Under the pieces are notes generated by a model that saw only the letters and a list, made by a program, of their open reading frames with translations, searched no databases and was not told the DNA's origin. Below, one piece after another: positions 20,172 to 34,886 of a stretch of DNA of 64,000 bases. A program made the position numbers and the translations under genes. Source of the stretch: an uncultured archaeon (GTDB lineage Archaea > Micrarchaeota > Micrarchaeia > Micrarchaeales > CABMGC01); NCBI GenBank assembly GCA_963787445.1, contig CAWBCT010000005.1:224001-288000 (forward strand), written 5' to 3'. Every line of letters begins with the position of its first letter. The stretch's first letter is position 1.

Positions 20172-21227
20172 TTAAACGTTTCCGCCGGAGATTATCGCGA
20201 CCGCCTTCTCGTGGTCTCCCAGCCGCAGCTTCCCGTAGGCGGCCATCGGGGCCACGCCGGCAAGCTCTGCTATTATGCCATATTCGTCGTAGAAGCTCTT
20301 CTGCTCCGTCGCCATCTCCTTGTCGCTCACCGTTAGGACAGAGCCTCCAAGTGCGCGAAGATCGGCTATGGCCCGCTCCCCGAAGGTGGGCAGGCCGACA
20401 GCGATGGCATCGGCCTTTGTTCTTGGGATTACGTACTCAACTGGCCTGTTTATTGTGAACGCCTTTGCGAGCGGCTTGCAGGAGCTCGCCTGGACCGCTA
20501 TCACCGAAGGCACGTGCGCCTTGGGCTCGCCCTCCTTGATGTTGCGGAATACCTTGAGTATGCCGCTCAGAAGGGTCGCATTGCCAACAGGAACAAAGAC
20601 GTAGCGCGCGTCGGGCAGCTGCGCCAGGAGCTCATGGGCGATGGTGCTCTGCCCCTCCTTCCGGTAGCAGTAGTCCCCTGCCAGGAAGGCGTCATTCCTC
20701 TTTGCGTACTGCTCGGCAAGGCGCTGGGCCATGGTGAAATCTCCCTTGACGTGATTTATCTTGGCATCGTGGGTCTCGCGGATCTCCCGAAGCTTGTCCC
20801 TGTTTGCATCCTTGCTGATGAAGATGGTGGCCTTTATCCCGTAGAGCTTTGCGTAGTAGGCCACCGAGTAGGCCATGTTTCCGGTGGAGGCACACACAAC
20901 CTCTTCGTAGCCGTACTCGTGTGCTTTCGCCACCTCCACAACCGAGCCGCGGTCCTTGAAGGAGTGGGTGGGATTCTGGAGCTCCATCTTCAGGTAGAGG
21001 CTGCTGTCATGCGTGTGCGCGAGCCTTGTGAAGCCGACTTCGTAGTGGCGGTACTTGCCGCTCGGAAGAAGGTGCTCGTAGTCCCAGAAGCTGTGGTTTT
21101 GCTGGGCCTTCGAGGCCGAGCCGTGGTAAGCAACCTCGAGTATTCCGGAGCAGGCTGCGCAGAGCTGCGAGTCGTACGTAGAATCATACTTCCTTGCGCA
21201 GCCAGTACATAAAAGTGAGTATTCCAT
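20172..21227 (-). CDS. thrC: Threonine synthase-like PLP enzyme
   Basis: N-terminal CxxC...CxxC; NPTHSFKDRG PLP lysine; CASTGN; VPVGNA; IISGGN. Confidence 0.8.
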   Translation of the reverse strand: MEYSLLCTGCARKYDSTYDSQLCAACSGILEVAYHGSASKAQQNHSFWDYEHLLPSGKYRHYEVGFTRLAHTHDSSLYLKMELQNPTHSFKDRGSVVEVAKAHEYGYEEVVCASTGNMAYSVAYYAKLYGIKATIFISKDANRDKLREIRETHDAKINHVKGDFTMAQRLAEQYAKRNDAFLAGDYCYRKEGQSTIAHELLAQLPDARYVFVPVGNATLLSGILKVFRNIKEGEPKAHVPSVIAVQASSCKPLAKAFTINRPVEYVIPRTKADAIAVGLPTFGERAIADLRALGGSVLTVSDKEMATEQKSFYDEYGIIAELAGVAPMAAYGKLRLGDHEKAVAIISGGNV

Positions 21228-30389: not shown

Positions 30390-33191
30390 TTAGCTTCTTC
30401 CGTGTTCTGACAAGAATGCAAGATACCTACCAATAACAGAAGGGGGAGCTGAGGGCTTCGAGTTCTTTATTATCTTCAATATGTCAGCGGTGCTTATCGG
30501 CTTTGCTGATGGCGCGGTCGGATCGTCGCTCGCCTTTTCGTCTATTGAGTTCTCAAGCGCCTGGGTCTTCGCCTCCCTGCAGATGTTCGCGATGTCTGCG
30601 CCGGTGTAGTTCTCAGTGACAGCAGCAATCTTCGAGTAGTCCAGATCCTGGTCGACAGGGCACTTGGTCAAATTGAGCTTGAAGAGCTGCAGGCGGGCAT
30701 CCTTGTCAGGCGGCCCTGCATAGATCAGCTTGTCCATCCTGCCCGGTCTTATCACCGCGCTGTCTATCGCGTCGGGCCTGTTGGTCGATCCGACTATGAC
30801 CACGCCCTGGCTCTGCTTTGCCGCGTCGAAGGCGCGCAGGAACTCGGCGGTGAGCTGCACCATCCCCTCACTCGAGTTCTCCCTGCTGGGGACAAGCGAG
30901 TCGATCTCGTCTATGAATAGTATGGAGGGGGTGTTTTCCTTCGCCCTGAAGAAGCTCTCCTTCAGCTTCGTGAGCGCGGTCTCGTAGCCTTCCTTCACCA
31001 GGTCTGCGCCGGAGACGCTGATCAGGGTAAGACCCTCTATGGTGTTCGCAACAGCGTTTATCAGCATGGTCTTGCCCGTTCCCGGAGGGCCGAAGAGGAG
31101 TATTCCGCTTATGCCATGGATATCGTACTCTTTCATCAGCTCGGGATGGGTCAGCGGGATGGTTATCGCCTCGTGGAGCGCCTTCTTTGCATCGCTGAGT
31201 CCCACTACTGCATCAAGGTTGAACGGCTTGTCCTGCACCTCTGCCGGCTCTCCGTTGAGCCTGCGCTCGTAGTCCAGCCTGAAGGTCTCGTACTCCTCGA
31301 GCTGAGCGTACGAGGTTGAGGGCTTTGTCGCCTTTATCACCGGAAGGAGGTCGTCTATGTCTATCTTGAGCACGTGCGAGTGCTTTATCGCCTCTGCGCT
31401 GACCTTTGTTGCGGTCTCCCTGCAGATGTTCGCGATGTCTGCGCCGGAGAACCTGGTTGTGAGGTTTGCCAGTTTGTCGTAATCTATGTCAGAGCTCAGC
31501 GGGTACACCTTGGCGTAGTGCTTGAAGATCGCCACCCTGCCTGCCTCATCGGGCAGCGGCATGTAGATCACGCGGTCAAACCTGCCGGGCCTCATTATGC
31601 TGGGGTCGATGAGGTTCGGCACGTTCGTCGCGCCGACTATCACTACCCCCTCTATCTTCTGGAAGCCGTCCATCTCGGAGAGGAGGGTTGAGAGCAGCTG
31701 CACGCCTCCCTCGCTGTTTGAGGCGTCGCGCCGCCTCGCTATGCCGTCCAGTTCGTCGAAGAAGAGCAGGGCAGGGGGATGGGCCCGGGCTGTGGTGAAT
31801 ATCTTGGAGAGCATCTGCGAGCTCTCGCCGTAGGCCGATGAGAGGATTGAGGAGGACTTTACGTAGAAGAAGCGGGCGCGGATCTCGTTGGAGAGGGCGC
31901 GCATCATGAGCGTCTTGCCCGTTCCCGGGGGCCCGAAGAGTAGGATCCCCTTGGTCGGCTTTATGTTGTAGGCGCCTGCGACCCCCTTGTGCTCTATGGG
32001 CGCGAGGATCGCCTCGCGGAGCTCCTCCTTTGTCTGCTCGTAGTTGCCTATGTCGTCCAGGGTCTCGTGGGTGCCGGAGGTGAGGTCCTCAAACGCATCG
32101 CCGAAGGTGCTGATGAAGTCCTGCTTCATCACGTCCAGCGCGCGGACTATGTCTATGCCGTTTATCTCAAGCAGGAAGAGCGCAAGGGGCGTTATCACGA
32201 AGCCGAGCACCACGTAGTTGCTGAACGCCTGGCCGGTGAGCAGGGTCAGCCCGAAGTACACCCCCAGTATTATGAACGAGAGGAGGCTGGCGCCGGAGCC
32301 CTTGAACCCGGAGCGGCTCTTTATCGCGAAGCTCACCATCGCGAAGACGGTCACGAGCCAGACGGCCAGCTGCACCGCGACGGTTGTGAGGTTGAGGGTG
32401 AGGGCAAGGGCGCAGAGGTAAAGCAAGTAAGGGATCTGGGCGGGCAGGGAGAGGAAGCTGATGAACGACTGGCCAAACGCGGAGGGGAGCGCGCCCAGGG
32501 CTGGAACCGCCTTGAAGCCCGAGAGGTATGGGGAGAGGGTCGAGGCCCCGACTATCTTGGCGAAGCCGGCGACGTTGTAGGCTATCGGCGCAGCCAGGGG
32601 GAGGTTTGTGAGGGTTGCAAGGACCGGGAGCACGACTATCGCCACGGCGACCGCCAGGGCACCGCGCTTCAGGCCTATATACAGTATGCCTATCACGAGC
32701 GCGGGTATCTCAAGGAAGAAGCCGAGGAAGGAGAAGGGCAGGGCTATCAGCGCGAAGGCGAGGGTGATGAAGCGGTAGTGCTTGTAGCCGAAAACCAGGG
32801 AGAAGGTGAGGAACAGCACGTAGAGCAGCGCGAGCAGCGGGGCCTGGAAGATGAGCGGAGGCAGTGAGATGAACAGCAGGGCCATCAGGCCGGCGAGCGG
32901 GTGGAAGCGGGTAAGCAGGAAGGCGATGACTGCCAGGACTATTATTACATAAATAGGATAGAACGGGAAGGCGATGCAGACGCTTACGAGCGCGAAGAGG
33001 ACGAGGATCGAGTCGGGAAAGTACTTGTTGCTGGCGAACTCCTTGAGGGTCTCCTTCAGCCAGTAATAGGTGAGGGGGGTTGAGATTGCCTGCTTTCTTC
33101 TCTTGGTCAGCTCCTCATCGCTGGGTGCTTTTTGCCCTTTCTTCTGCACTGCGGCCTTGGCGCTCCCGCCAGAAGCTGGTTTTCCGGGCAT
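30390..33191 (-). CDS. Polytopic membrane protein fused to tandem CDC48-like AAA+ domains
   Basis: About 300 aa of TM helices, then two AAA modules (GPPGTGKT twice; FFDELD and FIDEID; RPGRFD and RPGRMD). Start set at MPGKP because the upstream part of the ORF overlaps tRNA-Tyr. Confidence 0.88.
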   Translation of the reverse strand: MPGKPASGGSAKAAVQKKGQKAPSDEELTKRRKQAISTPLTYYWLKETLKEFASNKYFPDSILVLFALVSVCIAFPFYPIYVIIVLAVIAFLLTRFHPLAGLMALLFISLPPLIFQAPLLALLYVLFLTFSLVFGYKHYRFITLAFALIALPFSFLGFFLEIPALVIGILYIGLKRGALAVAVAIVVLPVLATLTNLPLAAPIAYNVAGFAKIVGASTLSPYLSGFKAVPALGALPSAFGQSFISFLSLPAQIPYLLYLCALALTLNLTTVAVQLAVWLVTVFAMVSFAIKSRSGFKGSGASLLSFIILGVYFGLTLLTGQAFSNYVVLGFVITPLALFLLEINGIDIVRALDVMKQDFISTFGDAFEDLTSGTHETLDDIGNYEQTKEELREAILAPIEHKGVAGAYNIKPTKGILLFGPPGTGKTLMMRALSNEIRARFFYVKSSSILSSAYGESSQMLSKIFTTARAHPPALLFFDELDGIARRRDASNSEGGVQLLSTLLSEMDGFQKIEGVVIVGATNVPNLIDPSIMRPGRFDRVIYMPLPDEAGRVAIFKHYAKVYPLSSDIDYDKLANLTTRFSGADIANICRETATKVSAEAIKHSHVLKIDIDDLLPVIKATKPSTSYAQLEEYETFRLDYERRLNGEPAEVQDKPFNLDAVVGLSDAKKALHEAITIPLTHPELMKEYDIHGISGILLFGPPGTGKTMLINAVANTIEGLTLISVSGADLVKEGYETALTKLKESFFRAKENTPSILFIDEIDSLVPSRENSSEGMVQLTAEFLRAFDAAKQSQGVVIVGSTNRPDAIDSAVIRPGRMDKLIYAGPPDKDARLQLFKLNLTKCPVDQDLDYSKIAAVTENYTGADIANICREAKTQALENSIDEKASDDPTAPSAKPISTADILKIIKNSKPSAPPSVIGRYLAFLSEHGRS

Positions 33192-33213
33192 AATTTTTAT
33201 AGGTAACATATCC

Positions 33214-33224
33214 TTATATATAAA
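33214..33224. promoter_or_regulatory. Putative bidirectional TATA element between the AAA gene and tRNA-Tyr
   Basis: TTATATATAAA lies about 25-35 nt from both the minus-strand ATG (33191) and the tRNA 5' end (33251). Confidence 0.5.
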
Positions 33225-33250
33225 TGTTTTGAGTAGAATATCGACATAAA

Positions 33251-33356
33251 CCCGCTGTAGCTCAATGGCAGAGCGATCGACTGTAGTCTGTGAAGCTTCT
33301 TGCAGTTTTTCAAGAAGGATATCGATAGGTTGGGAGTTCAACTCTCCCCAGCGGGA
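33251..33356 (+). tRNA. tRNA-Tyr(GTA) with a 34-nt intron at 37/38 (33287-33320)
   Basis: Acceptor CCCGCTG/CAGCGGG+A; D-arm GCTC-AATGGCA-GAGC; anticodon stem ATCGA/TCGAT with CT-GTA-G; T-arm GGGAG-TTCAACT-CTCCC. Confidence 0.92.
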
Positions 33357-34100: not shown

Positions 34101-34661
34101 CTACGGAAGTTGGGACTTGAGTGATTGGGCGAACTCCTCGAGGCGTGTCCCGACCAGGACCGCGTTTGCACCTCCCTTTATGTCCTTGACGGTGCTTAGA
34201 TAGCTCGCCTGGCAGAGCCACCCGCCCCAGATCTTCCTCGCCTCCTCAAAGAACTCCTCCTTGGGAAAGCCCGTGTCGATGTTTCTCTCGTTCCAGACCG
34301 CCTTGGTGTCTCGCGGGAGCTCGCTAAGCTGCTGGAGGGTGTTCGGCTCTATCATCAGCATATCAGGATAAATCTGCGGAACCCTTCCCACCACAAGAAC
34401 GTAGTCTGCGCCCGCCTTCACCGCCCGTATTATCTCGCTGTCGTACTGGTGGATGCCCTTGGCGAGTATCGGCTTGTTTGTCATGCCCTTTGCCTTGCTT
34501 ATCAGGTCAAAGGAGCCCTCCCATCTCGGGTCGGTATGCACGGAGATGATATCGCCTACCTTGTTCGCAATCTCGAATAGCTCCTCCCAGCTCTTTTCGG
34601 AGTGGTATCCGTAGGGCGAGGCGGTCTTGACCTCCGCGATTATGGTTATCCTGCCGTACAT
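34101..34661 (-). CDS. Short indole-3-glycerol-phosphate synthase (TrpC)-like TIM-barrel protein
   Basis: IIAEVKTASP, ISVHTD, PILAKG, AGADYVL, NERNI, AVLVGT; only 186 aa. Confidence 0.7.
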   Translation of the reverse strand: MYGRITIIAEVKTASPYGYHSEKSWEELFEIANKVGDIISVHTDPRWEGSFDLISKAKGMTNKPILAKGIHQYDSEIIRAVKAGADYVLVVGRVPQIYPDMLMIEPNTLQQLSELPRDTKAVWNERNIDTGFPKEEFFEEARKIWGGWLCQASYLSTVKDIKGGANAVLVGTRLEEFAQSLKSQLP

Positions 34662-34670
34662 AAGCGTGAT

Positions 34671-34838
34671 TTACTCTTGGGGGATCGAGTATCGGTTTGC
34701 TCCGCCCCCTCTGTGCTCCTTTCTTTCAGCGCAGGTGCATCCGCAGGAGCAGTTGACTTTGCATTTGCAGCCGCCGTAGCAGCCACAGCTGCATCCGCCG
34801 CCGCATTCGCAACCTCCGCCTCCACCTTGATTTGCCAT
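34671..34838 (-). CDS. Cys-rich metallothionein-like microprotein (55 aa, 11 Cys); absent from the ORF track
   Basis: Manual translation MANQGGGGGCECGGGCSCGCYGGCKCKVNCSCGCTCAERKEHRGGGANRYSIPQE*; fills the gap between two co-oriented genes; GGGG upstream of the ATG. Confidence 0.75.
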   Translation of the reverse strand: MANQGGGGGCECGGGCSCGCYGGCKCKVNCSCGCTCAERKEHRGGGANRYSIPQE

Positions 34839-34886
34839 CTTATCCCCTACAATAATACCAGGTTAGTCTTTTTCAGGCTTTCGGAT

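Follow-up and report, generated by a model that had tools for sequence, protein, structure and literature searches.

A cysteine-rich microprotein family of Micrarchaeota as a candidate metallothionein of Archaea

We describe a family of small, cysteine-rich peptides in Candidatus Micrarchaeota, first noticed in a 64,000-nucleotide stretch of DNA from an uncultured archaeon (contig CAWBCT010000005.1; hereafter the window, meaning the whole of the stretch that was analyzed). The 55-residue peptide encoded there is probably a new, cytosolic metal-thiolate peptide of the metallothionein type, non-homologous to those already known. A fuller proposal may well be right: that this is the first metallothionein family of Archaea, that it arose de novo within a single order of Ca. 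Micrarchaeota when a CxC-x3-CxCGC unit was duplicated in tandem, and that it would act both as a free metal buffer and as the tail of an HD-domain hydrolase.

The first-pass annotation had picked out a minus-strand open reading frame (ORF) for a protein of 55 residues with 11 cysteines in residues 10-36, all in CxC spacing, and the translation bears this out. The ORF opens with ATG and closes with a TAA that ends at 34671; the N-terminus of the peptide reads MANQGGGGGCEC. The gene and its parts lie as follows.

34671..34838, minus strand: coding sequence of the Cys-rich peptide including the TAA stop (ORF list and sequence; median dN/dS of 0.13 in relatives)
34731..34811, minus strand: Cys-rich core, residues 10-36, with 11 Cys (all invariant in alignment A1, 19 sequences, and alignment A2, 42 sequences)
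34779..34811, minus strand: repeat unit 1, residues 10-20, CxC-x3-CxCGC (translation; consensus CECGGACxCGC)
34737..34769, minus strand: repeat unit 2, residues 24-34, CxC-x3-CxCGC, with xC following at residues 35-36 (translation; consensus CxCKxxCxCGC-TC)
34824..34838, minus strand: conserved N-terminus M-A-N-Q-G (M1, N3, Q4 and G5 at least 90% conserved in A1 and A2)
34844..34847, minus strand: GGGG run, a candidate Shine-Dalgarno-like site (sequence; 6-9 nt before the ATG)

The cysteines occupy positions 10, 12, 16, 18, 20, 24, 26, 30, 32, 34 and 36. Their spacings are CxC and Cx3C only, and each belongs to at least one of seven overlapping CxC motifs. Cysteine thus accounts for 11 of 55 residues (20%) overall and 11 of 27 (41%) in the core; its share is 0.9% in the 35 ORFs of at least 250 aa in the window. 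No other frame in the window has more than three CxC motifs, among 859 stop-to-stop frames of at least 40 aa. Glycine supplies 15 of the 55 residues, the aromatic and histidine residues are Y21, Y50 and H42, and neither a hydrophobic segment nor a signal peptide was found in the translation, in keeping with the few hydrophobic residues that had been remarked on. Codon usage is likewise as annotated: ten of the 11 Cys codons are TGC and one is TGT, matching the GC3-rich usage of the window (106 TGC versus 13 TGT and a GC3 of 0.705 in the same 35 ORFs; overall GC 52.6%). The GGGG run noted ahead of the start codon is also present. It may serve as a Shine-Dalgarno-like site; it is not conserved in the homologous loci. 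Across those loci we found no conserved upstream cis-element. TATA-like runs stand 13-45 nt before the ATG in many of the AT-rich loci, not in all, and several copies start 0-8 nt behind an upstream gene. A scan for sigma-70 promoters and intrinsic terminators was uninformative for an archaeal host.

Homologues of the peptide were found at about 50 loci in total and range from 41 to 60 aa in length. Matches at E ≤ 1 turned up in 22 of the 61 related genomes searched (G000 included). Eighteen matches, in 17 genomes, reached E ≤ 4.3e-9 and all of these are open frames; one weak match (E 0.186) fell in G050, a genome flagged as unpublished. The same peptide design is encoded at 19 of 19 loci with E ≤ 3.2e-4. 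In alignment A1 the 11 cysteines, E11, G14, G19 and R39 are invariant. In alignment A2, which takes in called proteins and one divergent member, the 11 cysteines, E11 and G19 are still invariant, and M1, N3, Q4, G5, G7, G9, G13, G14, G33 and R39 are at least 90% conserved; histidine is not conserved in the 42 sequences. The residues between the cysteines are free to vary (M, R, S, L, I, V, K, T, D, E, F and Y all occur), with Cys and Gly fixed.

Selection was analyzed on the core motif, which is present in 39 of 43 loci and gives 34 unique nucleotide cores; the four loci without it are two weak matches (L002 and L021), the divergent L020, and L029. Variable sites at codon positions 1, 2 and 3 number 19, 16 and 39 of 39, respectively. 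Among the 34 unique cores, mean pS is 0.71, with synonymous sites near saturation, and mean pN is 0.17. Of the 561 pairs, 197 are saturated; the 364 for which dS is finite have a median dN/dS of 0.13. These cores were selected by a pattern that requires cysteine, and the invariance of cysteine within them is therefore there by construction; independent support for it comes from A1, A2 and the 19 loci. Alternative frames are open in 18-33 of 41 padded cores, and none is open in all 41. A search for homologues that conserve the ORF, together with an estimate of dN/dS, was the check proposed when the ORF was first described, and on its outcome we judge the ORF to be a genuine coding gene under strong purifying selection.

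Some copies depart from the common form. The start position is ATG in 17 of the 19 loci, ATA in L006 (1635, minus strand) and TTG in L007 (1501, plus strand), and no canonical in-frame start codon was found upstream in L006. In L029 (2363-2512) an in-frame TAA takes the place of the codon for Gly19, a residue invariant elsewhere, and the Cys pattern is intact downstream; this is either a recent pseudogene or broken copy, or an assembly error. At L022 (297-440) and L054 the Cys-rich ORF lies in frame, with no intervening stop, behind a Lys/Arg/Glu-rich ORF, forming an open frame of 127 aa. L046 and L047 have a similar upstream region but with a stop directly before the ATG.

The family follows one design: MANQG-x-G-x-G, then CxC-x3-CxCGC, a three-residue linker (mostly xGG), a second CxC-x3-CxCGC, xC, x-E-R-(K/R) and a variable charged tail. 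Since the unit recurs along the A1 and A2 consensus, the core is an internal duplication in which two 11-residue units stand in tandem, 2 x [CxC-x3-CxCGC], with xC at the end. An AlphaFold2 model built with 42 sequences had a mean pLDDT of 60 and no secondary structure apart from a short helix at residues 36-42. A low-confidence model of this kind would be expected of a fold that needs metal.

The family has a narrow distribution. A scan by pattern and tblastn with one genome per species, covering 185,579 prokaryotic species, returned 22 loci, 20 of them in records titled Ca. Micrarchaeota or Micrarchaeales and two in one metagenome-assembled genome (MAG) titled 'bacterium'. Every match in a record that names a phylum is to Ca. 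Micrarchaeota, which NCBI taxonomy (as Microcaldota) places within kingdom Nanobdellati, the DPANN group. The flanks of homologous loci also hold the archaeal genes TFIIB, aIF5A and eRF1, and the original attribution of the DNA to a DPANN archaeon is thereby supported. As to the 'bacterium' record (isolate LSA4.bin48), its two copies (L023 and L026) are flanked by Amidohydro_2 and Laminin_G_3 genes common to Micrarchaeota loci; the label is probably too coarse or wrong. The accessible main text of a paper on DPANN archaea from acid mine drainage (AMD) sediment (PMC12153355) does not contain the terms 'MAS1', 'LSA4', 'metal resistance' or 'cysteine'.

Within the phylum, 36 of 401 sampled genomes had a match at E ≤ 0.001. 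Two families of a single order account for 35 of them, with 26 of 82 genomes in one (f1) and 9 of 94 in the other (f3), or 35 of 176 together; in all other families the gene was found in 0 of 224. These counts are samples in which many genomes are incomplete, and they are to be read as 'not found' rather than 'absent'. One of the f1 matches is in an unpublished genome (G219), two of the f3 matches are weak (4.4e-6 and 5.2e-4), and G017 and G196 have two matches each. As sampled, the family is small and patchy, it is confined to two families within a single order of Ca. Micrarchaeota, and it behaves as an accessory gene. Metagenome contigs contributed nine further loci. Viral contigs yielded 101 pattern matches, with no relative among them. 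The window also contains another, weak match at 20848..20955 (E 0.017), which was rejected as a paralogue, as it lies off-frame inside a 361-aa ORF.

Protein databases hold little of this. A profile search of 1.84 billion representative proteins gave seven matches at E ≤ 0.001; six of these belong to the family (48-76 aa), and the seventh is a repeat protein of 702 aa that is not related to it. Only nine family members occur among 5.8 billion called proteins, and the peptide of the window is not one of them; those that carry a name are all 'hypothetical protein', and none has a Pfam domain. With nine called members against about 50 loci at the DNA level, gene callers evidently miss the family.

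Classical metallothioneins are proteins of less than about 10 kDa with a high content of Cys in CxC, CxxC or CC motifs, few or no aromatic or histidine residues, metal-thiolate clusters and, often, metal-responsive expression. The archaeal peptide falls within the size range (55 aa, with homologues of 41-60 aa) and has the cysteine content (20% Cys, seven overlapping CxC motifs, invariant in 42 sequences). As for expression, none of six sequencing runs listed as carrying the stretch is recorded as RNA, which speaks neither for nor against it. Its small size, Cys share and CxC motifs, together with the lack of a hydrophobic segment and of a confident metal-free fold, fit the metallothionein class. 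By composition the peptide is accordingly of this class, and it belongs to no known sequence family. The annotation of the peptide as a metallothionein has thus held in part: the ORF is conserved, its cysteines are invariant and the class features are there, but no known metallothionein model recognizes it.

Searches of Pfam and NCBIfam with the peptide of the window at E ≤ 1 returned no family, no known metallothionein model was matched above its gathering score, and PF02069 (Metallothio_Pro, the SmtA/BmtA family) had no match in the source genome at E ≤ 1. When the 42 members were compared with Pfam at E ≤ 10, Metallothio_5 was touched by 8 of 42 (best E 0.97) and Metallothio_2 by 1 of 42 (E 2.3), non-significant leads in both cases; no other Pfam models were touched. 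A 19-sequence profile run against 177,635 distinct PDB chains produced nothing significant (best were a conotoxin, E 0.67, and osteomodulin, E 1.3), and no solved metallothionein chain was matched. Neighbors in ESM-Atlas at 0.78-0.81, which are leads only, were three unnamed clusters (47-49 aa, one from Microcaldota) and a Metallothio_5 cluster, the top named one at 0.81. On these searches we regard the family as new and as having no detectable homology to known metallothioneins.

The closest likeness in kind is to the CxC-rich metallothioneins of eukaryotes (fungal Cu-thioneins, the N-terminal beta-domain of animal proteins, Metallothio_5 of Diptera and Metallothio_2 of plants), which, like the archaeal peptide, are short and built on CxC and Cx3C. 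They are rich in Gly, Ser and Lys, have nearly all of their Cys in these two spacings and show modular duplication of Cys motifs. The archaeal peptide differs from them in its fixed 2 x [CxC-x3-CxCGC]+xC arrangement, its MANQG start, its invariant Glu11, its archaeal host and the lack of a significant match. The resemblance is most likely convergent, one of kind. SmtA and BmtA share with the archaeal peptide a prokaryotic host, small size, patchy distribution and richness in Cys, metal binding by the archaeal peptide being our proposal. SmtA, however, combines Cys with His ligands in a zinc-finger-like fold, whereas His is not conserved in the archaeal family and PF02069 finds no match. MymT is a mycobacterial, lineage-restricted peptide of about 50 aa that is often missed by gene callers and binds several Cu(I) ions; we liken the two by description rather than by sequence comparison, and their hosts belong to different domains of life.

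We next consider the genes around the peptide. In the window it stands in a co-directional run of genes for a GT9 glycosyltransferase, an FkbM methyltransferase, the Cys-rich peptide, an ORF resembling indole-3-glycerol phosphate synthase (IGPS), a GT2 glycosyltransferase and an AAA ATPase. The last of these (30390..33341, minus strand) is a 983-aa ORF whose translation has two GPPGTGKT Walker-A motifs, as in a CDC48-like double AAA ATPase, preceded by a long, hydrophobic, multi-pass N-terminal region. The next gene does begin 9 nt downstream as described, the TAA ending at 34671 and the following ATG lying at 34661. This neighbor (34101..34661, minus strand; 186 aa) had been called TrpC-like, which is right only in a weak sense: residues 4-94 match the Pfam IGPS model (E 1.1e-8, 35 bits), but they align to positions 47-141 only of a 254-position profile, and the NCBIfam TrpC models score 15-36 bits, far below cut-offs of at least 258. 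Trp_syntA was not found in the source genome, which is 82% complete. The 186-aa protein resembles an orphan barrel protein that has been shortened; its gene lies in a run of glycosyltransferase and methyltransferase genes, and it probably has no part in making tryptophan. Genes like the IGPS-like, FkbM, GT2 and GT9 neighbors were not found by tblastn at any of 41 other loci, and an operon with the TrpC-like gene was rejected on this ground. The implied link between the two genes is thus not conserved, and since none of the neighbors recurs, their adjacency is particular to this genome.

For the wider context we scanned 56 of 127 listed flanking ORFs, the nearest on each side, at 33 non-redundant loci, having dropped seven loci that were the window's own or duplicates. 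Clustering of the flanks revealed only partial, clade-limited neighbors, with no cluster in more than nine loci. A HerA-like ATPase gene is found at nine loci in all and is convergent at six same-genus loci, and an Amidohydro_2 gene is convergent at seven. The 56 ORFs include no metal transporter, metallochaperone or metal-sensing regulator.

The Cys-rich module also occurs as part of a larger protein. Two proteins of 240 and 241 aa (P0012 and P0013, 61% identical) begin with an HD_3/YfbR-like domain (residues 18-153) and continue in frame into the full Cys-rich module, complete from MANQG through the tail, at the C-terminus of the HD-domain hydrolase. In the DNA of L038 (4001-4147) and L053 (1006-1728, minus strand) there is no stop between the two parts, and a near-identical module stands free in L041. 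HD-domain hydrolases use a bound divalent metal. The fusion shows that the module, as encoded, would act intracellularly, as one domain of a larger enzyme. Fusion to a cytosolic enzyme speaks against secretion or processing of the peptide, and a role in metal handling would be compatible with it.

The fusion also lends itself to another reading, in which the module is a metal-structured (probably Zn) adaptor or metallochaperone, a folded Cys-cluster that serves a specific partner enzyme rather than a general metal sink. Besides the in-frame fusion in the two 61%-identical sequences, the conservation of MANQG, E11 and R39 at 90% or more speaks for it, and at L037 (3834-3980) and L042 (4001-4147) the gene is embedded in a 2-oxoacid dehydrogenase operon, with the E2 gene (2-oxoacid_dh) on one side and the E3 gene (Pyr_redox_2) on the other. 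N3, Q4, G5, E11 and R39 are conserved more strictly than in most metallothioneins, which may be a sign of a specific partner or of a defined fold. Against such an adaptor, no neighbor is conserved across the 33 non-redundant contexts, AlphaFold2 gives no defined fold, and most genomes of the two families yielded no copy (matches in 26 of 82 and 9 of 94), so that any partner would have to be dispensable. We consider this reading possible but unlikely.

A thiol redox buffer, an oxidant scavenger or a store of cysteine or sulfur, for which metal binding would be incidental, is a more doubtful alternative still. DPANN cells with reduced genomes often lack pathways for low-molecular-weight thiols, and a core that is 41% Cys would suit such a role. 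The gene adjoins one for an E3-like pyridine-nucleotide disulfide oxidoreductase at four loci, among them L030 and L032 as well as the two dehydrogenase operons. These four, however, are out of 33 contexts and come from related genomes, and a simple store would have no need of the exact Cys spacing and Gly positions that are invariant in the family. We regard a role of this sort as improbable.

Many cysteines in a short, Gly-rich peptide might equally suggest a miniature iron-sulfur peptide, acting as an electron carrier or scaffold, and a gene for a Rieske protein lies upstream of the peptide at one locus, L007, only. The spacing is not of the CxxCxxC type found in ferredoxins, and neither a CxxCxxC...CP motif nor a ferredoxin model matched: ferredoxin and Fe-S families gave no Pfam or NCBIfam match at E ≤ 1 with the peptide of the window and no Pfam match at E ≤ 10 with the 42 members. 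Genes for Fe-S assembly are absent from the 56 flanking ORFs. An iron-sulfur function is, on this evidence, very unlikely.

A ribosomally synthesized and post-translationally modified peptide (RiPP) precursor or a secreted, disulfide-rich peptide had been named as the alternative to a metallothionein, and this idea is much weakened. The peptide is Cys-rich and about 50 aa long, as are the SCIFF/ranthipeptide precursors (about 45-50 aa, many Cys), and its best PDB profile match, at the non-significant E of 0.67, is a conotoxin. SCIFF/ranthipeptide precursors, to our knowledge, always lie beside a radical-SAM maturase. The archaeal peptide does not: among the 56 ORFs of the 33 contexts there is no radical-SAM, YcaO, lanthipeptide or other maturase, no peptidase-transporter and no immunity gene, and no NCBIfam precursor family matched. 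Conservation extends over the whole core and the N-terminus, with no split into a leader and a variable core; a secreted peptide would be expected neither to lack a signal peptide and hydrophobic segment nor to recur as the C-terminal domain of a cytosolic enzyme. We hold this alternative to be extremely unlikely. Finally, a chance ORF, or a Cys-rich leader peptide controlling the TrpC-like gene, as the short length and the same-strand gene 9 nt downstream might suggest, has next to no chance of being correct given a dN/dS of 0.13, an ORF conserved across about 50 loci and window neighbors that recur at 0 of 41 other loci.

We return to the metallothionein-type reading. Counting against it are the 56 flanking ORFs with no metal gene among them, the lack of a significant match to a metallothionein model or, in the profile search, to any PDB chain, the strict conservation of the non-Cys positions N3, Q4, G5, E11 and R39, the aromatic residue (F or Y) at position 21 in 10 of 34 unique cores and the internal TAA of L029. 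Under this reading, the apo-peptide would be largely unstructured, and the thiolates of the 11 invariant cysteines, in two tandem units and the terminal xC, would wrap a polynuclear metal-thiolate cluster, for which the conserved glycines may supply the tight turns. If the archaeal peptide behaves like the CxC-rich fungal Cu-thioneins, it would hold more Cu(I) than divalent ions. In the domains of animal metallothioneins the ratio is about one divalent ion to three Cys, with 12 Cys for 4 Cd, three ions in the beta1 domain and 14 Cys for 5 Zn (PMC9781358). At that ratio, as given there, the peptide would hold about 3-4 Zn or Cd ions.

In the cell, the peptide would buffer or sequester Cu, Zn or Cd alongside few other metal-handling genes, and in one sublineage the module would provide an HD-domain hydrolase, itself metal-dependent, with its C-terminal tail. 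The source genome has a single E1-E2 ATPase match, outside the window (G000:C5, about 68.0-69.2 kb), in an 815-aa frame with an HMA domain; this P1B ATPase is predicted to be a heavy-metal pump of the CopA/ZntA type. The Cation_efflux (CDF) family had no match in the source genome at its 82% completeness. With one HMA-bearing P1B ATPase and no CDF transporter found, buffering in the cytosol would be useful.

Metallothioneins are known from eukaryotes and from some bacteria. The searchable literature, which leaves subscription journals and supplements outside, has no paper with the phrase 'archaeal metallothionein(s)' or 'metallothionein(s) in archaea', and the papers that name both Micrarchaeota and metallothionein appear, to judge by titles and the opening lines of abstracts, to be unrelated. 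Metal-response studies of T. gammatolerans and H. mediterranei report that no metallothionein was found in those archaea (PMC3407056, PMC9240420). Within the searchable literature, a metallothionein-type protein is thus of a kind not yet described in archaea. Should our reading hold, convergence would have brought metal-thiolate cluster peptides into all three domains of life. For bioinorganic chemistry, a conserved archaeal family would offer a minimal module of 11 Cys in 40 residues to characterize, and the few means of handling metals known in ultra-small symbiotic archaea would be joined by a sequestration mechanism.
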